From contig JBAXUB010000001.1 in assembly GCA_037129895.1 (NCBI GenBank), positions 18,947 to 82,946 of the forward strand: a stretch of 64,000 nt of DNA, written 5' to 3'. This document shows positions 9,821 through 45,748 of the stretch, in pieces. A program made the translations under genes and the position numbers. The notes under the pieces are model-generated. The model did no database searches. It worked only from the letters and a program-made list of their open reading frames with translations, and was not told where the DNA came from. Numbering within the stretch: position 1 is the stretch's first letter; every line of letters starts with the position of its first letter. Source of the stretch: Candidatus Tayloriibacteriota bacterium. GTDB lineage: Bacteria > Patescibacteriota > Minisyncoccia > Phycocordibacterales > PALSA-1337.

Positions 9821-12800
9821 TTATCTAATATCCAACTTCACATTCAATTCACCGACAGCCTGACTCTCCCCAGTCACACTCGAGAACGATATACCTTTGA
9901 CTGAAGTAGCTGCAGAAATCGCCTTCTCATTCTTTTCAATAAATGTCTTGCCGGCTACATCCGTATCAACTATGAGAGATACCTTATCATTCACGGTAAA
10001 GCCCCTATCCTTGCGAAGATCCTGAATAACGCGTATGAGTTCACGAACTGTTCCCTCTTCTTTCAGTGCTGGAGTTATAGCGATATCTAACTCGACTTCT
10101 TGAGTGAGACCCGCCAAAAACATAACTTCCTTTACATTGACTTCATCCATGATGAGTTCACAGAACTCTGGACTGAGTCCCGCCGACTTCTCTGTATTAT
10201 TGACCGTCAATTTTGCCAAAGGTTGTCTAACGTTGATCTTGGCTTTCATACGGGCTTCGAGACCTTTCGAAGCAATGTCTCTAACTATTTGCATGTTCTC
10301 GATCAATTTCGCATCGGATTTTCCAACTTCTGGCCAAGACGTGAGATGTACGCTATTAGTAGAGCCGAACAATTCCTGATGTAGATACTCAGCATAGAGT
10401 GGAGTAAACGGCGCCATCAATCTCGCTAGAGTTGAGAGCACGTATCTAGTAGTAGATAGAGCCTGTATCTTATCTACACCATCATTCTTGAACCGATCTC
10501 TAGATCTACGCAGATACCATTGAGAGAGTTCAGCTATAAAATCACGGATCGCCCTGGTCGGTTCAAAGAATTTGTAATTGTCTAGATTTTTCGTTGTTGT
10601 TTCTATCAACTGACTTAGTTTGGCGATGATCCATCGATCCAAGATATTGGAAGACAACGATCTGTCCACTGCCCTCTTTTCTAATGTAGCATCACCCAAC
10701 TCCTCGACACTTCTATTCTCATATAGTTTATAGAATGCTGTAACATTGGATATGAGATTGAATACTTTCTTCACAACCTCATCAACAGTTTTCTCATCAA
10801 AATTCTTTGAATCTCCTGGCTGATTGACGGAATACATCCAAAAACGTAGTGCGTCTGCTCCATATTTATCCATCATATCCCAAGGACTAACGACGTTGCC
10901 GATGGACTTACTCATCTTCTTGCCTTTGGCATCCAGGATATGTCCCAAACAGATTACATTCTTGTACGCCTTACCTTTACCCATGATCGCTCCGATAGCA
11001 TGCAATGTATAGAACCATCCACGTGTCTGATCGATCGCCTCCGAGATGAAATCCGCCGGATAAGCAATGTCCCGACCGATCTCTTCATTCCCGCCCAACT
11101 CATGCTCCTGCGAAAACGGCATCGATCCGGAATCGAACCAGACGTCCAAAACTTCCCTAGCACGACTCATCGTCCCGCCACACTGGCAATCCAACTTTAC
11201 ATCATCTATGAATGGTTTATGTAGATCAAGCTCATAATCCGCATTGTGAGGCAAGATAGAAAAATCCACTGGTCGCACTTCTGCGTTTGCGATGAAATCT
11301 TCCTGCTTTCGGTAGATTCTAGCACTATCGATATCATGACCTGCTGCAGCTGCAAACAATGTATAGGCCGGAGTCTCATGAGTGACGATCAATATCGTTT
11401 TGCCCTCATATTTACTTTCCATATCATATAGGAATTCACCCATACGTCTCTTTATATCCATATAGTCTTCCCCTCCTTCTGGTTTCCATAACCATCGGTC
11501 ATTCTCGCCGCATGCACGAGCCAATTCATCCACACCCTTCCCATCGAAAATTCCCGCACCATATTCTCTGATCCGATCATCTACAATAACTCTCGACGAA
11601 TCGAGGCCGACTACATCACGTACTATCTCAGCAGTTTCTCTAGTTCGTAGGAGTGGAGATGTAAAGATAAGATCGATTTTTGATGATACCAACTTCGCAG
11701 CAGAATCACTCACGTCTTTCTCGCCTTTCTCGGTCAAGTTGATGATGGAAGTAGCCGCAGTATCTAGAATATTCCTAACATTGTTCTCTGCTTCGCCATG
11801 TCTCATGACCAAGTATTTGTTCTTCGATCTCTTGGCCAATTCAGAAACAACACCAACCACTCTAGTAGATTTACACTTCTCACATGTCCATACAGGCAAC
11901 GGCGTCCCCCAATAACGCTCTCTCGATATTGCCCAATCCTTGATCTCACGTAGCCACTCACCAAAACGACCCTCCTTGATATGTTCGGGTTCCCAATGTA
12001 TCCCCTCATTTTCCTTAACTAATGTGTCGCGCAAACTAGACATCCGCAAATACCATGAATCGCGAGCGAAATATATGAGAGGTGTATGACAACGCCAACA
12101 GAATGGATATGTGTGTTCATACTTTTCCTTGGCAAACAAAAGTTTTCGTCCAGCCAAATCCTTTATGATAGTGACATCCGTGCCAGGATCTTTGACGAAA
12201 AGACCAGCCAATGATCCGGCCTCTTTCTTGAAAGTACCATCATCATTCACCAAGTGGAATTTCGGAAGCCCTACCTTCGTCCCCAATTCAAAATCATCCT
12301 GACCATACATAACTGCTATATGAACGATTCCAGTTCCGTCAGACGTTGTAACGAACGGAGCGGCGTAGACTCTATATGCATTCGCTAGCTTCTCCTTTTC
12401 GGTACCTTGCACATTGTCCTTGAGAAAGGGATACAAAGGGTTATAGGCGAGACCTACCAATGTTCCACCTTTCACAGTTTCCAACACGCTCGCATTTTCA
12501 AAATGTGACTTCAATGCTTCGAACCTCTCTTTCGCCAAAATCACCACTTCCCCGCTTGCGACTTTTACTTTTACATATTCGATATCGGCATTAATCGCTA
12601 AACCAACATTCCCTGGCAACGTCCACGGAGTAGTCGTCCATGCCAACAAGTATGTATTAGCTTCACCAACGACTTCAAATTTTACATAAACTGATAGATC
12701 TTTGACCGTCTCATATCCTTGCGCCAATTCGTGTGAAGAAAGACCCGTCCCACAACGTGGGCACCACGGAACTACTTTGTAGTCTTTATAAAGTAGTTTC

Positions 12801-13345
12801 TTGTTTTCAGCAGTTTTGATTATACTCCAAACCGACTCTATATATTGCGACTTGTAAGTTATATATGGATTCTCTAGGTCCACCCAATAACCCATACGAT
12901 CAGTGAAGTCCTCCCATTCATGTACGTACTTCCAGACACTCGCTTTGCACTTCTCATTGAATAGGCCTATGCCGTATGACTCTATTTCTTTTTTGGACTT
13001 CAGCCCGAGTTCCTTTTCTACTTGTAACTCAACTGGCAGACCATGTGTATCCCATCCACCTTTTCGACGTACATGATAACCCTGCATCGTCTTGTATCTA
13101 GGAATTGCATCCTTGAAAGCACGCGCCTCTAGATGATGGATACCTGGTCTACCGTTAGCTGTCGGAGGTCCTTCATAAAATACGAACTCGCCCTTTGGAG
13201 ACTCCTTGCCCAATGACTTTTCGAAAACGCTATTCTCTTTCCAATACTTCAAAATCGCCTCTTCACGCAATGCATGGGGACTTTTCACTGAATTTGTTGA
13301 ATACTGGCTATTCTCTCGATCAGTTTTGTTGTTTGGAAGAGGCAT
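9821..13345 (-). CDS. ileS: Isoleucyl-tRNA synthetase with an inserted histidine-phosphatase (PGAM-like) domain
   Basis: PGIHHL (HIGH) and KMSKSIGN are present, with an editing domain. Residues about 508-700 (YLVMRHGEAENN...LIVTHETP...) form a nested RHG phosphatase domain. Confidence 0.9.
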   Translation of the reverse strand: MPLPNNKTDRENSQYSTNSVKSPHALREEAILKYWKENSVFEKSLGKESPKGEFVFYEGPPTANGRPGIHHLEARAFKDAIPRYKTMQGYHVRRKGGWDTHGLPVELQVEKELGLKSKKEIESYGIGLFNEKCKASVWKYVHEWEDFTDRMGYWVDLENPYITYKSQYIESVWSIIKTAENKKLLYKDYKVVPWCPRCGTGLSSHELAQGYETVKDLSVYVKFEVVGEANTYLLAWTTTPWTLPGNVGLAINADIEYVKVKVASGEVVILAKERFEALKSHFENASVLETVKGGTLVGLAYNPLYPFLKDNVQGTEKEKLANAYRVYAAPFVTTSDGTGIVHIAVMYGQDDFELGTKVGLPKFHLVNDDGTFKKEAGSLAGLFVKDPGTDVTIIKDLAGRKLLFAKEKYEHTYPFCWRCHTPLIYFARDSWYLRMSSLRDTLVKENEGIHWEPEHIKEGRFGEWLREIKDWAISRERYWGTPLPVWTCEKCKSTRVVGVVSELAKRSKNKYLVMRHGEAENNVRNILDTAATSIINLTEKGEKDVSDSAAKLVSSKIDLIFTSPLLRTRETAEIVRDVVGLDSSRVIVDDRIREYGAGIFDGKGVDELARACGENDRWLWKPEGGEDYMDIKRRMGEFLYDMESKYEGKTILIVTHETPAYTLFAAAAGHDIDSARIYRKQEDFIANAEVRPVDFSILPHNADYELDLHKPFIDDVKLDCQCGGTMSRAREVLDVWFDSGSMPFSQEHELGGNEEIGRDIAYPADFISEAIDQTRGWFYTLHAIGAIMGKGKAYKNVICLGHILDAKGKKMSKSIGNVVSPWDMMDKYGADALRFWMYSVNQPGDSKNFDEKTVDEVVKKVFNLISNVTAFYKLYENRSVEELGDATLEKRAVDRSLSSNILDRWIIAKLSQLIETTTKNLDNYKFFEPTRAIRDFIAELSQWYLRRSRDRFKNDGVDKIQALSTTRYVLSTLARLMAPFTPLYAEYLHQELFGSTNSVHLTSWPEVGKSDAKLIENMQIVRDIASKGLEARMKAKINVRQPLAKLTVNNTEKSAGLSPEFCELIMDEVNVKEVMFLAGLTQEVELDIAITPALKEEGTVRELIRVIQDLRKDRGFTVNDKVSLIVDTDVAGKTFIEKNEKAISAATSVKGISFSSVTGESQAVGELNVKLDIR

Positions 13346-13480
13346 GATATTGAATCACCGAATAATGGTATTTATGGCATTCATTCTAGCATTTTTTTGA
13401 TTAATTGGAATAAAAATGCTCAGAACAGCTAAAAGCGATTCTGAGCGAGTGAAGTCGAGAGACCAGTACAACATGTGTCG

Positions 13481-13921
13481 TTAAGCCGGCACTCGTAACC
13501 GTGACAAGATGCACAACACTTCATCAACGAGGAGTCTGTGTCCGGACTTGACCATCGGGATTTCGTAACGCAGACCATTTAATCCCTGGTCATGCCAGAT
13601 GCGTATCTCCATGAACTCTGCAGCTGATTCAGCCTTCTTGAGATCACAGAGGACGCTAGGATCGTATAACTCGAAGCTGGCGATCCAAGCTGCTTGCATA
13701 TGCTTAACATCAGCTGGATCGATCTTGAGACCAACCCAACACCCGGTCTGTGGTAAAGTCTTCTTCACCGGGCAACAACAACGAAATCCTGGCCGTGTTT
13801 GCTCAATGTGCGCAATTTCGATCGGAAACTCGGCCAACTCTGTATACAACAGAGGTACGGCCCTAGGTATCAATCTATTCATATGTAATTCTCCTTCTGC
13901 CGAAACTCTACCATTAAACAA
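13481..13921 (-). CDS. Hypothetical Cys-containing protein (FRCCCPV) of higher GC than its neighbours
   Basis: 146-aa ORF co-oriented with the flanking argS/ileS. No family recognised. A competing plus-strand ORF at 13599..13946 is less likely. Confidence 0.35.
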   Translation of the reverse strand: MFNGRVSAEGELHMNRLIPRAVPLLYTELAEFPIEIAHIEQTRPGFRCCCPVKKTLPQTGCWVGLKIDPADVKHMQAAWIASFELYDPSVLCDLKKAESAAEFMEIRIWHDQGLNGLRYEIPMVKSGHRLLVDEVLCILSRLRVPA

Positions 13922-31098: not shown

Positions 31099-31149
31099 GT
31101 TTGTATTTTAATAATAGGATTATAGCAGAAATTTCCTTGACCATATTTA

Positions 31150-31917
31150 TCAACTTATGAGAGTTACCACCGCCGCCTTGTATATATCCATTTTCACTGA
31201 CTCTCTTTCAGTTTTCTGACTAATATGACTCTCATCACCCACAGTCTGACCATTGATAAGATTGTCACTAACATATAACAGTGCAGCACTTGGCACATTC
31301 TGTTGCTTAGAAACGGAAAATAAAGTCGCTGTCTCCATCTCTACACCAAAATATCCATCTTTTGACCATGACTCAATATGATCCCACGTCTCCCCCATCA
31401 TAGCCTGATTGCTAATAATCGGACCAGCCCAGACTTTGTTTTTCCCAGAATAATTACTTACCAACTGTTTACGTAAAGTATCATTAGAATAATGTCTATA
31501 ATCTTTTGCATTTGGTTCATACGTTCTCGTTGTACTTTCATTACCATAACTCCAAGATGGCGAAATTAACTCCATATCTCTAATATTAGGATTGAGTCCT
31601 CCACAGCTGCCAATATGAATATTCTTTTTTGATCCAAATAGGCTTGCCAGGTGTATCATCTCCGAAAGAAGTGCTCCACCATACATTACGACAAACCAAT
31701 ACTTTTTACTCTTAATATCTAATTCAAGTACATATGATAGAAAACCCTGACGTTTTATGATGGAATATTCAATTCCCAAATCCTTCAATGTTTTCTGGAT
31801 ATTCGAATCATGCTTTGCCCTATCCCAGGCACCATAGGATAAGAAGGCCTCCACGACATAATCATCCGGTAGATCAAACATATTAATAAAATCTTTGCGG
31901 GTAAAAGCTTTGTACAT
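31150..31917 (-). CDS. Nucleoside phosphorylase family protein (PNP/UDP/MTAP fold)
   Basis: GVEMETATLFSVS, like the GxEMEsaAL motif of phosphorylase family 1. Confidence 0.6.
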   Translation of the reverse strand: MYKAFTRKDFINMFDLPDDYVVEAFLSYGAWDRAKHDSNIQKTLKDLGIEYSIIKRQGFLSYVLELDIKSKKYWFVVMYGGALLSEMIHLASLFGSKKNIHIGSCGGLNPNIRDMELISPSWSYGNESTTRTYEPNAKDYRHYSNDTLRKQLVSNYSGKNKVWAGPIISNQAMMGETWDHIESWSKDGYFGVEMETATLFSVSKQQNVPSAALLYVSDNLINGQTVGDESHISQKTERESVKMDIYKAAVVTLIS

Positions 31918-32005
31918 ACCAAAAGTCTATCAGGATAAGACATAAATGTCATCGCACACAACATAACCCTACCCCACCACACCACTTTGTGATAACATTC
32001 AAATC

Positions 32006-33965: not shown

Positions 33966-34077
33966 TGGTAGAACAACTTAAATCTTGTATCAATTATACC
34001 AGAGATATATGTTTTAGAATATTGTATAAGTAAAAGAAAGTCCTGACCGTAGCCAGAACTCTCTTGTTCCGCCACGA

Positions 34078-34512
34078 TCAGGACTGTTTGAAGTTGTCCT
34101 CGACTATCACAAAGAGTGTTTGCCTATCGAACAACCCGTGTGATGGTAAATGGAAGCCGCACGTCCTCAACATATTGAAGTCAACCGATAATATCGACTC
34201 CAAGCTGGTAACCAGGTCATCGATGGTGCTTTCGACGAATGCCAATGAAGAGGAAACGATCATACGGTACCCAAATCGTCCTTCCCCATCTACGTCGACA
34301 TAGACGTCGACAATCTCGGCCCCCTGCGGACCAGCGTCTGGCATAGATATCTTCATCCCTTTGGGTGGAAGAGCTGGAAGTGATATGTTGCCCTCGAAGA
34401 TATATGCAGGCAGTTCTGCCCACCGAGTCTCTCCTGGTAAAGATTCCTTTTGGAGACCTATTTTCACCCCATAATTCCACTGAACAGACATTTTCATAAC
34501 TTCTTCCTTCAT
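34078..34512 (-). CDS. Hypothetical protein (GC-rich island)
   Basis: ORF of about 140 aa in a region of about 49% GC. Confidence 0.45.
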   Translation of the reverse strand: MKEEVMKMSVQWNYGVKIGLQKESLPGETRWAELPAYIFEGNISLPALPPKGMKISMPDAGPQGAEIVDVYVDVDGEGRFGYRMIVSSSLAFVESTIDDLVTSLESILSVDFNMLRTCGFHLPSHGLFDRQTLFVIVEDNFKQS

Positions 34513-34647
34513 CGATTTACTATCCGAGACAATCTATGTCTCCTAGGTGCTTGTGTCGACAAGCATTTATCACCTAGCTCGAAATGAGAAAGTTCAATCT
34601 TCTGAGATTCGAACATATATTTCTGTATTTTGCAAGGTGGATTCACT

Positions 34648-34674
34648 GGGTCCACTATTGGATAGATTTAGAAC
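34648..34674. repeat. Conserved 27-mer gggtccactattggatagatttagaac (copy 1), preceded on the minus strand by a terminator hairpin
   Basis: Near-identical to 35105..35131. Confidence 0.7.
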
Positions 34675-34680
34675 TTGTTT

Positions 34681-34719
34681 GGGATAAAAGAATAACCACC
34701 TAGTCTCTACTCAGGTGGT
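34681..34719 (-). terminator. Intrinsic terminator of the 34719..35063 gene
   Basis: ACCACCT-loop-AGGTGGT followed by TATTCTTTTAT on the minus strand. Confidence 0.6.
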
Positions 34720-35063
34720 TACTGTGTTCCAAACCTATTCTTCTGTTCCGCTGGCCAAAGCGGACAATGCGCGACAAATGTCGCTATCATCCCATTGGTT
34801 ATGTGGTACCAAAACAGCTCTCCGCAACCCGGACACTTCGCTACCACTGCCAGATTAGCTCCGGTCGCGTCTGAGCTGGTGGCATGCTTGGTAAAACCAA
34901 CAACCATGCGCGCCATCCGGCGGATGTTGCCAGATGGATAGATGCGTGTGTCTTTACAGTCTTCCGTACACATATAAACACACATACGGTCTTGAGCTTT
35001 GTCAGCATCAGTCCACTTAAGTCCCCAATCGGAAACAGCTTCTCCTGTTTCGTATTCGTTCAT
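34719..35063 (-). CDS. Hypothetical Cys-rich protein (CPGC, CxxxC) in the GC-rich island
   Basis: 114-aa ORF. A TGcTATAAT extended -10 lies just upstream. Confidence 0.45.
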   Translation of the reverse strand: MNEYETGEAVSDWGLKWTDADKAQDRMCVYMCTEDCKDTRIYPSGNIRRMARMVVGFTKHATSSDATGANLAVVAKCPGCGELFWYHITNGMIATFVAHCPLWPAEQKNRFGTQ

Positions 35064-35104
35064 AAATAAAAAGGGCTTCGCACTAATTATAGCACAAATA
35101 ACAT

Positions 35105-35131
35105 GGGTCCCCTATTGGATAGATTTAGAAC
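35105..35131. repeat. Conserved 27-mer (copy 2) gggtcccctattggatagatttagaac
   Basis: Near-identical to 34648..34674. Confidence 0.7.
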
Positions 35132-35196: not shown

Positions 35197-35772
35197 CTAA
35201 TCAGTCTTCCGCACCTGAATCGGGTATTTCGAAGCCCAATACTTCGTGAGCTCCACCCACTTATCGCCTGACAGGACAAATGTGGTCTTGTGAACAGTCA
35301 TTGCCTCGGCGAGCCATCCCCCCTTACTTGCTCCCAGTGCGATAGCGAGTGACGACACAAGCCTGATGATCGTTTCGCAGAATCCGACCTTTCCAATTGG
35401 TCTGACCAGAACCCAAATATTTCCATACTTGAGTTCTTCTTCCGTCTTAGGTCCGCTGACAATAACGTCAATGTTTCCATTCAACCACTCATTTACGACC
35501 GGCACTATTTCTTTCAGGTCATCTTCTTCGGGAGCGCGGAGGCGGATATCTTCCACTCTGCAAGAGAGCACCCCTTCTTTTCCGTTCTCCGAATGGGCCT
35601 CGACACGCCACAAGAAGAATGGACTAGCTAGCGTGCCACTATTAAGGGCCTTCGTGTGCGCAGTGAACCGTGTCCTGCAGAGGGCTATTGAACGACCCTC
35701 ACTATTTGTTTTACGCCACCATACGAATGTATCCTGCCTGGTGGGAGGCAGTCTTTTTCGTCCTCTTTTCAA
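35197..35772 (-). CDS. Hypothetical protein (GC-rich island)
   Basis: 191-aa ORF, no family recognised. Confidence 0.45.
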   Translation of the reverse strand: MKRGRKRLPPTRQDTFVWWRKTNSEGRSIALCRTRFTAHTKALNSGTLASPFFLWRVEAHSENGKEGVLSCRVEDIRLRAPEEDDLKEIVPVVNEWLNGNIDVIVSGPKTEEELKYGNIWVLVRPIGKVGFCETIIRLVSSLAIALGASKGGWLAEAMTVHKTTFVLSGDKWVELTKYWASKYPIQVRKTD

Positions 35773-36044
35773 TTTTCCTTTCCCTGTCTACTATCCTTGC
35801 CACGTTATGCGACAAGCGGCCAATAATCAATCAGCACGTTATAAGACAGTTCTAAAATTAGCCTACAATCATTAAGTTGTTTTGTCAAGCTGGGTGCCGT
35901 CGTAGAGGTTATTAGAACTATTTTTGAGAGGAGGAATGATGTGACGATTTATATTCCTGCATTCTGCCCCTCGCTTGAGTTCACTATATAAAAGGCAAAC
36001 CGCAGAGATTGCTCCCTGCGGCTGTTTGAAATTGACTCAAGGAC

Positions 36045-36383
36045 TTACTTTTGCTTTAACTCGTTCGTCTGCGAGTCCCACTCGAATTGGTGCAAACATT
36101 CCTTGACACACGTGACGCTGAAGATGATATTGGCCTTACCCCCGTAGGTGCCGTCTGGAGCTGGAGACAGGATGACAGTACCGTACACATCAAATTCACC
36201 TTGACTACCAGTTTGAAACGCCATCTTTCCGTCGAAGTTTATCGTCTTCTCATCAGCTTCGTTTGCGCTCTTGAGGTTGACTTCGTGTTCACCGAAACGA
36301 ACCTTACGATTTACTACGAGTTCCACAGCTTCGACTAACAGAGAAGTGGCCAGAGCGGTTGAGGCGAATATTTTGATTTTCAT
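36045..36383 (-). CDS. Hypothetical secreted protein (signal peptide)
   Basis: MKIKIFASTALATSLLVEA signal. Confidence 0.5.
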   Translation of the reverse strand: MKIKIFASTALATSLLVEAVELVVNRKVRFGEHEVNLKSANEADEKTINFDGKMAFQTGSQGEFDVYGTVILSPAPDGTYGGKANIIFSVTCVKECLHQFEWDSQTNELKQK

Positions 36384-36523
36384 ATGTACTCCTTTGAGCT
36401 ACTCTAGGCGCATCCTAGAAAGACTCTAAACTGGGCATTTGCCCGCTGGTTCGAGCTGAAGTGCCAAACCTAGCAGTTTTGAATCTTTATGTATTATACA
36501 CCTCTTATAGTGTATTGTCAAGC

Positions 36524-36598
36524 TGGGTGACTAATGGGATTCGAACCCATACTGCGGCTTTCACAGAGCCGAGTGCTAACCATTACACCATAGCCACC
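36524..36598 (-). tRNA. tRNA-His (GTG) with the extra 5' G
   Basis: GGTGGCTATGGTGTAATGGTTAGCAC-TCGGCTCTGTGAAAGCCG-...TGGGTTCGAATCCCA; anticodon loop CTGTGAA. Confidence 0.9.
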
Positions 36599-37282: not shown

Positions 37283-37957
37283 TTAACCCTCAAGACTCTT
37301 TAACGTTCTTACTATAGCTAATATAGCTTCAAATTTCAACTTCTTTCTAGTTAAATACAGAATCTCTCCACCCATGTATAAATGAGTCATAATCTTTTCC
37401 GCTTCACTTTTAGCGTATTTTAATTGGAAACATGAACTATTTTTGCTTTTTGTAACATGACCTTTGACGTTGATGCGATTCAACAGTTCCCATCTTATCC
37501 AACTTAGAAACACTGGACTTGCCGAACAAAATCCTAAATACCAAAGGAACGATACTTTCCACCGCCTATCATAATATGAATGTATATAACCATCTCCATC
37601 GAATACACCACGAAGAAAATGAAAGAAGTACTCCGAGGGTATCGCTATCTCTTTTAATACTTTAGACTTCGCAGGGCCAATACCAATCTGAAGTAGGAAC
37701 TTAACAAAATTTACGTCGCCAATTTGGATCCGATAAGTGTGACTGAACTTATAACCACTATAATTGTGACCAATGTTGCTGTGGATATTCAAACATCTCA
37801 TAATGTTTCTTATTTGTTCGAAATCCTTTGAGACAAAAGATACATGCCTCCTATCTCCATATACACACCCATCTGTAACAAATAGTCCGATAGCATATGC
37901 AAAATTTGCTGACCACTCGATTTTTACTTTTCCTTTTGGTTTTGGTCCTCTTTTCAT
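37283..37957 (-). CDS. Free-standing two-motif LAGLIDADG homing endonuclease, directly 5' of tRNA-Leu
   Basis: Motif 1 FAYAIGLFVTDGCV; motif 2 FLRGVFDGDGYI. Confidence 0.85.
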   Translation of the reverse strand: MKRGPKPKGKVKIEWSANFAYAIGLFVTDGCVYGDRRHVSFVSKDFEQIRNIMRCLNIHSNIGHNYSGYKFSHTYRIQIGDVNFVKFLLQIGIGPAKSKVLKEIAIPSEYFFHFLRGVFDGDGYIHSYYDRRWKVSFLWYLGFCSASPVFLSWIRWELLNRINVKGHVTKSKNSSCFQLKYAKSEAEKIMTHLYMGGEILYLTRKKLKFEAILAIVRTLKSLEG

Positions 37958-44725: not shown

Positions 44726-45748
44726 ATGCTTCAGCAGTCTAATGATAAAAGAGTTAAATTTCAACCGGGTGAACAAGCAAGGTTTCTCGTGCGTGTAATC
44801 AATAAACTGTGCATTACGCAGACAACTCTTGCAACCATGGCGGGCATAAGTGTTCGACGTATTTCCGATTGGAAAGCAGAAAAAAGTACGATGCCATTAT
44901 CAGTTGTGAATTTACTATCAAAAAAATCTGGACTCAACTTACCGCACGGTATTCACTACATAGATCGATATGCCCATACGAGAGCGGCCGGAAAAAAAGG
45001 TGGAAAGGCAACTATAGAGAAATACCACGGTTTCCCCGACCCAAATAGGACACGCCTTTCTGCATGGAAAAAATGGTGGGAAGAATCTGGACGAGAAAAA
45101 ACTATCACCGCATCAACAAAGCCTGCGAGAATCCCGAATGATTCTTCCAACCTGGCGGAATTTACAGGAATAATGATGGGAGATGGCGGAATTTCAAAAT
45201 ACCAAATAAGTGTGACTCTAAACAAAATTGATGACTATGACTATTCATTGTTTGTACGTAACCTTATGAATAACCTTTTCCAAGTGGTTCCTTCGTTAGT
45301 CAAAAAACTAGATGAAAAAGCACTCATTTTGAATATATCACGACTTCAATTGGTCAGATTTTGTAATGATCACCTCAATCTACCAACTGGACACAAGATT
45401 CGTCATGGATTATATGTTCCTTCGTGGATAATGAAGAAAACCGTCTATAAAAGATCATTTCTCCGCGGACTTTTTGATACTGATGGTTGTGTAGTTATAG
45501 AAAAACATAAGGTCGACAAAGTGGTGTACTCTTATGCTCGCCTAAACTTCACGTCATATTGTCCAATATTATCGAAGTCCACATTCCAAATATTGACCGA
45601 GCTTGGATATACACCGAGGGTGCGTAGAAAAGAAAGATCAATACAACTTGAAAATTATGACGAAATATGTGATTATTTCAGAGTTGTAGGAACGCACAAT
45701 CCTAAACACACGGAACGTCTGAGGAAAGTCGGAATATTCCGTTCGTAA
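44726..45748 (+). CDS. LAGLIDADG homing endonuclease with an N-terminal HTH, directly 5' of tRNA-Ser
   Basis: Motif 1 LAEFTGIMMGDGGI; motif 2 FLRGLFDTDGCVVI; XRE-like HTH near the N-terminus. Confidence 0.85.
   Translation: MLQQSNDKRVKFQPGEQARFLVRVINKLCITQTTLATMAGISVRRISDWKAEKSTMPLSVVNLLSKKSGLNLPHGIHYIDRYAHTRAAGKKGGKATIEKYHGFPDPNRTRLSAWKKWWEESGREKTITASTKPARIPNDSSNLAEFTGIMMGDGGISKYQISVTLNKIDDYDYSLFVRNLMNNLFQVVPSLVKKLDEKALILNISRLQLVRFCNDHLNLPTGHKIRHGLYVPSWIMKKTVYKRSFLRGLFDTDGCVVIEKHKVDKVVYSYARLNFTSYCPILSKSTFQILTELGYTPRVRRKERSIQLENYDEICDYFRVVGTHNPKHTERLRKVGIFRS

Follow-up and report, generated by a model that had tools for sequence, protein, structure and literature searches.

Serial integration at a single tRNA gene, with newcomers displacing older elements outward, has been described for the tycheposons of Prochlorococcus (10.1101/2020.12.28.424599). 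The tandem ssrA islands of Dehalococcoides have 20-bp repeats that start in the T-loop, with a conserved motif just upstream of the repeat, and a large serine recombinase, and some of their units have no integrase (PMC3146451). Units in such tandem tRNA or tmRNA islands measure kilobases to tens of kilobases. The genomes of CPR bacteria (Patescibacteria) are very small, and the ways in which strain-specific genes are acquired and shed in this group are poorly understood.

We analysed a 64-kb stretch of DNA (hereafter the window) from an uncultured bacterium that was assigned to Candidatus Taylorbacteria (CPR/Patescibacteria) from NCBI protein names. The window lies in a 137-kb metagenome contig (ENA ERZ27300156 k141_672758). 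The genes around the locus are all on the minus strand, in the order L19, a LAGLIDADG ORF, tRNA-Leu, a PduO-type adenosyltransferase, tRNA-His, o112, o191, o114, o144 and a histidine kinase. Within the island that follows tRNA-His, two near-identical repeats of 28 nt (the 28-mers J_a and J_b; Table 1) lie on either side of o114. We propose, with a probability of about 0.5, that the 28-mers are att-like boundary repeats that result from serial insertion of promoter–gene–terminator cassettes at tRNA-His. On this proposal, a 28-mer closes each of two, and probably three, single-gene cassettes stacked downstream of tRNA-His.

As in tandem tRNA and tmRNA islands, the variable region begins exactly at the tRNA 3′ end, and the units follow one another head to tail in the orientation of the tRNA, separated by short direct repeats whose 3′ end resembles that of the tRNA. 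The repeats here start with a T-loop-like GTTCNAA, as those of Dehalococcoides start in the T-loop. The cargo varies between strains and includes a defence gene in a relative, and units without an integrase are known from the described islands as well. Unlike in those islands, each unit here holds one gene in 457–787 bp, far below the size of known integrative elements, and no unit carries an integrase or integrase fragment. The repeat also shares just ACCCA and a degenerate T-loop motif with the tRNA, and exceeds the matching tRNA segment by 5 nt. By analogy, the locus resembles tandem tRNA-anchored islands or cis-mobilizable elements on a miniature scale, with putative mobility; its units are integrase-free and its repeats resemble a tRNA 3′ segment only in part.

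Integron arrays offer a second comparison. In both, single-ORF cassettes share one orientation, a recombination-site-like repeat follows each cassette and the cargo consists mostly of ORFans, and entry at the proximal site would apply here too. The present array differs in having no IntI and no attI, in being anchored on a tRNA gene, and in cassettes that carry promoter-like and terminator-like signals of their own. An integron attC was ruled out: with C at position 4, GTTCTAA fails the GTTRRRY core (R′ being GTTRRRY and R″ RYYYAAC), and neither J_a nor J_b has an inverted partner at attC spacing, their self-complementarity being weak. Xer-dependent modules (IMEX elements and the pdif modules of Acinetobacter plasmids) are likewise small, with 28-bp sites and a trans-acting host recombinase, whereas the 28-mers here are direct, not inverted, repeats. 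A dif/Xer site was also ruled out, given that on either strand only 4–11 of the 28 positions agree with dif of E. coli and of B. subtilis, and that the 28-mers have no 11-6-11 dyad.

Table 1. Features of the tRNA-His slot in the window strain. Positions are those of the window.
Feature	Position	Strand	Remarks
tRNA-His (GUG)	36525–36597	minus	ARAGORN and Rfam; ends in ...GTCACCCA (A at 36524), which forms the proximal border of the variable slot
D5a	36511–36529	minus	CACCCAGCTTGACAATACA; last 6 nt of the tRNA region and first 13 nt of unit 1
o112	36045–36383	minus	Cargo of unit 1; 112 aa, hydrophobic N terminus, no family match
Hairpin past o112	36023–35998	minus	Strong, terminator-like
J_c, junction element	35891–35957	minus	Ends in the 28-mer GTTCTAATAACCTCTACGACGGCACCCA (35918–35891)
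D5b	35878–35896	minus	CACCCAGCTTGACAAAACA; runs from the end of J_c into unit 2; followed by TTGACA-17-TAGGCT
o191	35197–35772	minus	Cargo of unit 2; TTG start; small uncharacterised protein family
Hairpin 2	35189–35150	minus	GGCTCACGAGG-17 nt-CCTTGTGGGCTC; terminator-like end of unit 2; then T-tract TTTTCTT (35149–35143)
J_b, junction 28-mer	35104–35131	minus	GTTCTAAATCTATCCAATAGGGGACCCA; second copy of the earlier note plus 1 base
TGcTATAAT	35094–35086	minus	Unit 3 start; extended −10-like box, read from the sequence; 12 nt past J_b
o114	34719–35063	minus	Cargo of unit 3; 114 aa, Cys-rich ORFan
Hairpin 1	34720–34693	minus	AACCACCT-11 nt-AGGTGGTT; overlaps the stop codon of o114; then T-tract TTCTTTTAT (34692–34685)
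J_a, junction 28-mer	34647–34674	minus	GTTCTAAATCTATCCAATAGTGGACCCA; first copy of the earlier note plus 1 base
Leader upstream of o144	34537–34603	minus	67 nt; 67/67 identical in relative L030
o144	34078–34497	minus	Probable start ATG at 34497, giving 139 aa; then terminator-like hairpin at 34065–34034

A repeat pair brackets the o114 unit

An earlier note on this DNA had described two spacers with the same minus-strand organisation, in which a stem-loop and a T-rich tract precede a near-identical 27-mer, GTTCTAAATCTATCCAATAG(T/G)GGACCC. Our analysis bears this out. The 27-mer is present in exactly two copies, both on the minus strand, at 34648–34674 (T variant) and 35105–35131 (G variant), which match at 26 of 27 positions and differ only at the T/G; matches at ≤3 mismatches appeared in none of 100 dinucleotide shuffles. 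We found that the identical block in fact includes the next A and thus spans 28 nt of the form GTTCTAA-N16-ACCCA, over which J_a and J_b agree at 27 positions. The 5′ flank, taken through the T-tract, is only weakly similar (15 of 26 nt identical, giving 80% over the whole 51 nt), and in the 3′ flank identity drops off right past ACCCA (3 of 15 nt beyond). The contrast between the block (27/28) and its adjacent flank (15/26) shows that the 28-mer is either constrained or recently copied, whatever its purpose. The distance from the upstream hairpin stem to the 28-mer is constant at 19–20 nt in both copies, whereas that from the 28-mer to the next start codon is variable (41 nt for o114 and 120–135 nt for o144). 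As direct repeats, J_a and J_b bracket a 457-bp unit that contains o114.

A wider search for copies of the 27-mer, which the earlier note had suggested, yielded nothing beyond chance matches. With up to 10 mismatches allowed, the 64-kb window contained no third copy, and neither did the contig for 10 kb past either end of the window (84 kb examined altogether). A scan of GTDB representative genomes with an 18-mer returned 20 matches, all with unrelated flanks and at chance level, and a 22-mer scan of JGI metagenomes returned none. Scanning IMG/VR gave one chance match for the repeat and no match for the J_c pattern.

Several other identities of the repeat were considered and rejected. A dispersed intergenic repeat (REP/MITE-like) was ruled out, as the only two copies in 84 kb are both located in the island and share one strand, and no inverted copy is present. 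A CRISPR repeat was rejected, as was a sigma-54 or ECF promoter. We also rejected a coding repeat, as the copies fall in different frames of overlapping spurious ORFs. An assembly artefact was rejected because the repeat does not reach the length of the assembly k-mer and because a different assembler produced a 100% identical sequence (Logan SRR7053653), though from the same reads.

The hairpins that precede the two copies have long loops, and a consensus terminator scan flagged only a short version of hairpin 2 because the loops exceed the length that the scan allows. Folding of the 104-nt hairpin 2 region gave z = −2.8. The −10-like box that the earlier note had placed after each copy is clear past J_b, where it reads TGcTATAAT; past J_a there is just TTGCAAAAT (34635–34627), 14 nt from the repeat, with CAAAAT as its hexamer (34632–34627; TAAAAT in relative L030). 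The implied −35 geometry is not the same for J_a and J_b. All three units start with promoter-like sequence, namely TTGACA-17-TATAAT (12/12; unit 1), TTGACA-17-TAGGCT (unit 2) and TGcTATAAT (unit 3), and all close with a hairpin that is followed by a T-tract and then by a boundary sequence. The array reads tRNA-His...CACCCA / GCTTGACAATACA-o112-J_c / GCTTGACAAAACA-o191-J_b / TGTTATTTGTGCTATAAT-o114-J_a / leader-o144-kinase. With a hairpin and T-tract for each small gene and a promoter-like element after each repeat, the island therefore has the appearance of separate expression units in series, consistent with the modular layout noted before.

Both 27-mers are on the coding strand, directly past leaky-looking long-loop hairpins, as might be expected if they formed a repeated RNA element, carried by a 3′ UTR or by a transcript that reads through, such as a processing or stability signal or a small RNA. 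We consider such an element, which the earlier note had raised as its alternative, highly improbable. The 27-mer alone gave z = −0.44, the copies fold differently in context with no stable or shared fold, and a search of Rfam returned no match even at E ≤ 5. The element is also not conserved in L030, and there were no compensatory changes available to assess.

Similarity between the unit joints and the tRNA-His end

The pentamer ACCCA that closes the 28-mers is also the final pentamer of the tRNA-His gene. We observed a second, distinct repeat pair at this end of the island, D5 (CACCCAGCTTGACAA(T/A)ACA), whose copies D5a and D5b are identical at 18 of 19 positions, against a chance expectation of ~0.0015 such pairs over the 3.8 kb covered. 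The first 6 bases of D5a form the end of the tRNA region, so that the D5 pair brackets the 633-bp o112 unit as the 28-mers bracket the 457-bp o114 unit. D5a contains the −35 of the perfect TTGACA-17-TATAAT promoter-like site (36521–36493).

The junction element J_c lies at the joint between o112 and o191 and is directly followed by GCTTGACAAAACA, which reproduces the 19-nt junction between the tRNA end and unit 1. Its 28-mer has the same length as J_b, matches it at 18 of 28 positions and shares its first 7 and last 5 bases. J_c is thus a possible diverged third copy of the 28-mer. Its link to J_a and J_b rests on these shared ends, on the length and on the position at a break in homology, and it is statistically marginal, given that the overall identity of 22.5/44 is equalled at ~7 other places in the window.

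Pattern searches of the window returned the same arrangement. GTTCTAA-N14-18-ACCC had three matches, each of which falls within the island, has the orientation of the tRNA and shows a spacing of N16. The looser GTTCNAA-N10-17 followed by the terminal pentamer of tRNA-His also gave three island matches, again all on the tRNA strand and all N16; the same pattern with the terminal pentamers of the window's other six tRNAs gave no matches. Among all 1,024 pentamers, ACCCA was the best-scoring tail.

The start of the 28-mer, GTTCTAA, is T-loop-like, and tRNA-His has GTTCGAA. A gapped alignment (three gaps) of the 28-mers with the last 26 nt of tRNA-His gave p ~0.007 for J_a and J_b in a test that was chosen post hoc; the same alignment was not significant for J_c, and neither was local alignment of the 28-mers to tRNA-His. 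The idea of a pseudo-tRNA end is therefore a lead only. The core that the 28-mer and tRNA-His have in common is just 5–6 nt, and we rejected a true partial tRNA, as the 28-mer has no T-stem pairing. Another T-loop-like sequence, GTTCGAATC, is found at 34607–34615 and is not conserved in L030.

Comparison with related strains

We recovered the loci of relatives by exact-protein and 90%-cluster look-ups, and the evidence base comprises one strain and three informative relatives (L030, L034 and L048). The four loci are 85–92% identical up to ...GTCACCCA (CACCCA) at the tRNA-His end and unrelated right after. In L030, the closest relative (kinase 89% identical), ~130 nt separate tRNA-His from a hairpin, past which come a T-tract and a diverged 27-mer and then the leader, a homolog of o144 and the kinase. 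L034 has tRNA-His, a 97-aa membrane protein, a conserved segment and a SoFic-like Fic gene (PADLOC 5e-44) before the backbone, with no o144 and no kinase, and in L048 the sequence past tRNA-His is different again. A fifth strain (ERZ1426855), represented by a gene list only, has other genes past PduO, and there a gene for a 503-aa large serine recombinase and one for a Rep protein adjoin the neighbouring tRNA-Leu. Because four strains all break at the tRNA-His end, we regard the 3′ flank of tRNA-His as a hypervariable slot, the island being the content of this slot in the window strain.

Some elements at the unit boundaries were shared between strains with different cargo. A 67-nt segment that ends in J_c is kept in L034 (score 47, 0/300 shuffles), where its neighbours are the 97-aa protein and SoFic, as against o112 and o191 in the window, and its homology ends at ...GGCACCC in the window and L034 alike. 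L030 retains the T-tract and J_a region without o114. In L034, a match to GGGACCCAnGTT past the Fic gene was not significant.

The orthologous site in L030 bears on the function that the earlier note had suggested for the repeat, a shared operator that places the island genes under common control. For such a shared cis-regulatory site, a transcription factor would bind the 27-mer over the −35 or upstream region and co-regulate o114 and o144. Like shared operator or activator sites, the identical 27-bp block lies 12–14 nt upstream of the −10-like hexamers of two genes. It contains the dyad CTAT-CCA-ATAG, and its much higher identity than that of the 5′ flank suggests constraint on the block. 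However, the L030 ortholog of copy 1, upstream of the o144 homolog, reads GTTAAGAACCCATTCAACAG: it is identical at only 13 of 20 positions, has an 8-nt deletion, is missing TGGACCCA and does not have the ACCCA end. The T-tract before this decayed 27-mer and the sequence past it are 81–90% identical, and the adjoining 67-nt leader is 100% identical. Decay of the 27-mer beside a leader conserved at 67 of 67 positions counts against an operator, which would be expected to persist at the orthologous promoter of so close a relative.

Other observations point the same way. The small palindrome that the earlier note had seen in the 27-mer does exist, but it amounts to 4+4 bp only; the −35 geometry differs between the copies; the repeat's position tracks the terminator; no more copies were found in 84 kb of the contig or in the collections scanned; and the island encodes no recognisable DNA-binding protein. 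A regulatory site also leaves the shared ACCCA end, the D5 repeat and the fixed terminator spacing unexplained. We therefore judge a shared operator unlikely, and weaker than the reading of the 28-mers as cassette boundaries.

Proposed serial insertion of single-gene cassettes

Under the cassette-boundary reading, cassettes would enter by site-specific recombination at the tRNA-His 3′ end (...CACCCA), with the crossover in the ACCCA with which both the tRNA and the terminal 28-mer of the cassette finish. Serial integration of this kind is the simplest route to the observed order of units. A crossover in this shared pentamer would place each newcomer next to the tRNA, so that older units would be shifted outward and a 28-mer would be left at each joint. 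Because no recombinase is encoded in the window or in 10 kb on either side of it (84 kb), the enzyme would act in trans. The near-identity of J_a and J_b would follow if units 2 and 3 belonged to the same element family. The repeats would then be att-like joints, possibly relics by now, rather than regulatory sites, and as direct repeats J_a and J_b could still permit precise loss of the 457-bp o114 unit.

The abrupt end of identity at ACCCA and a 28-mer position that is fixed relative to the upstream hairpin argue for a cassette boundary. So does the retention of boundary elements under changing cargo, as seen for J_c in L034 and for the T-tract and J_a region in L030. The break in homology at the tRNA end, the restriction of the motif to this tRNA and this island, the D5 sequence at the o112/o191 joint, the foreign look of the cargo and the precedents in other bacteria also speak for it. 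Against this reading stand the lack of a nearby recombinase and the presence of only two near-identical copies, together with a core of just 5–6 nt shared with the tRNA, an L030 ortholog without the ACCCA end and a 28-mer without dyad symmetry. We saw no excision product, circle or empty site for the o114 unit. In addition, if strains exchanged the slot by homologous recombination, the same pattern among them could arise with no site-specific step.

One alternative is that the repeat is a one-off by-product, in which illegitimate or short-homology recombination, or a gene-conversion patch, duplicated ~30 bp when o114 was inserted and no site-specific system was involved. The likeness of J_c and of the tRNA end would then be coincidental, and the slot would vary by homologous segment swaps through its conserved flanks. 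Such an origin would fit a repeat with just two copies in this strain only, the marginal similarity of J_c and the lack of a recombinase nearby. The PNP_UDP_1 gene (31134–31966) is another strain-specific single-gene indel, and it has no clear flanking repeats. The window also encodes PilM-like and T2SSE/MshE-like proteins, and CPR bacteria are thought to import DNA via such pili. A by-product does not readily explain, however, why the same 2.6 kb contains two distinct pairs of direct repeats, D5 and the 28-mer, with exactly one gene unit between the members of each pair, why both repeats end with or contain the terminal (C/G)ACCCA of the tRNA, why four strains break exactly at the tRNA end, or why boundary elements are kept between differing cargo. 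For these reasons, we hold this alternative to be improbable.

A more far-reaching version of the cassette-boundary reading is that the slot is an integron-like capture platform without integron parts. Self-expressed cassettes would enter at tRNA-His through a 28-nt site resembling a pseudo-tRNA end, with a recombinase supplied in trans from elsewhere or by a transient element. We regard this version as doubtful. If it were true, tiny genomes could sample ORFan and defence genes singly; the relative L034 holds its SoFic defence gene in the equivalent slot.

More generally, serial insertion would mean that genes accumulated one at a time beside a tRNA gene and left joints that can be recognised, and these joints would offer a substrate for testing candidate recombinases. 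GTTCTAA-N16-ACCCA near tRNA-His would then also be a searchable signature in other Taylorbacteria. Plausibly, the locus represents a known way of acquiring genes in a new, small-scale form, within a phylum that is poorly understood. If the cassette reading is wrong, the repeat pair amounts to no more than a small local duplication within accessory DNA.

Cargo genes and the o144 leader

The four proteins o112, o191, o114 and o144 gave no matches in Pfam, PHROGs, NCBIfam or PADLOC. We found that o191 is a real gene, with 12 matching clusters among 1.8 billion representatives and an AF2 model that is confident along all 191 residues; a structure search with it returned no informative neighbour. 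The database search with o114 returned itself as the sole match, and its AF2 model was unusable (pLDDT 43). Searches of the island DNA against phages and of o191 against plasmids gave no match. The cargo ORFs have 47–50% GC, compared with 42.5% for the window, and with this raised GC and their status as ORFans or members of rare families they look foreign. If serial insertion is the correct explanation, o112, o191 and o114 are recently acquired accessory genes.

o144 is common to the window strain and L030 (76% identical) and absent from L034, and searching its alignment in IMG/VR and JGI identified no relatives. Its leader contains an inverted repeat, TGCTTGT-CGAC-ACAAGCA (34565–34548), over a TCGACA-17-TAGATT promoter-like site (34559–34531), which makes the leader a better candidate control element for o144 than the 27-mer. 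We also observed that the start codon is the only difference between P0144 and o144.

Repeats at tRNA-His and contents of the tRNA slots

We observed a 19-nt direct repeat, CACCCAGCTTGACAA(T/A)ACA, whose first copy spans the 3′ end of tRNA-His and whose second copy lies 633 bp downstream (Table). A perfect promoter-like site, TTGACA-17-TATAAT, begins 3 nt past tRNA-His and includes part of the first copy. In the related-strain locus L034, the tRNA-His slot is occupied by a SoFic-like Fic defence gene, with a PADLOC E-value of 5e-44. In the neighbouring slot, at tRNA-Leu, L036 has a second L19 copy and a RhuM-family gene, and strain ERZ1426855, according to its gene list, has a 503-aa serine recombinase and a Rep protein.

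The joint formed by the second repeat copy and J_c, a possible diverged third copy of the 28-mer, is bracketed by the arms of a perfect 8-bp inverted repeat, AGTTCTAA / TTAGAACT, which lie 56 nt apart. The other two joints, J_a and J_b, lack a counterpart to this inverted-repeat partner. Additionally, a perfect 20-nt palindrome, CCTGCCTGCCGGCAGGCAGG, interrupts the L034 version of the J_c 28-mer.

A conserved block in the leader of o144

The 67 nt located 5′ of the small cargo gene o144 are 100% identical between the window and the related-strain locus L030, against ~82% in the flanks. This block, which is likely to be an operator or a 5′-UTR element of o144, contains the inverted repeat TGCTTGT-CGAC-ACAAGCA, enclosed by CTAGG...CCTAG and overlapping a promoter-like site, TCGACA-17-TAGATT. 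The leader also carries GTTCGAATC, which resembles a T-loop and, when its flanks are included, agrees with the T-arm of tRNA-His in 14/17 positions. GTTCGAATC is not conserved in L030, and its T-loop likeness is probably due to chance.

Other genes of the window

A PNP_UDP_1 phosphorylase-family gene, missing from the same position in both L030 and L034, is a further strain-specific insertion of a single gene; direct repeats are not apparent at its flanks. Two LAGLIDADG_3 homing-endonuclease-like ORFs, both free-standing, adjoin tRNA genes; the one beside tRNA-Leu has a counterpart in L030 and none in L034. The 1174-aa isoleucyl-tRNA synthetase contains an inserted histidine-phosphatase (His_Phos_1) domain (~residues 505-673), which separates the halves of its catalytic domain.

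Table. Positions of the features described (window coordinates unless L034 is named)
Feature	Position	Strand	Remark
Direct repeat, first copy	36511-36529
Direct repeat, second copy	35878-35896
8-bp inverted repeat, arms	35848-35855; 35912-35919	+; -
Palindrome	~12606-12625		L034
SoFic-like Fic gene	12764-13825		L034
o144 leader block	34537-34603	-
o144 leader inverted repeat	34565-34548
T-loop-like sequence	34607-34615
PNP_UDP_1 gene	31150-31917		segment 31134-31966
LAGLIDADG_3 ORF	37283-37957		adjoins tRNA-Leu
LAGLIDADG_3 ORF	44726-45748		adjoins tRNA-Ser
Isoleucyl-tRNA synthetase	9821-13345	-
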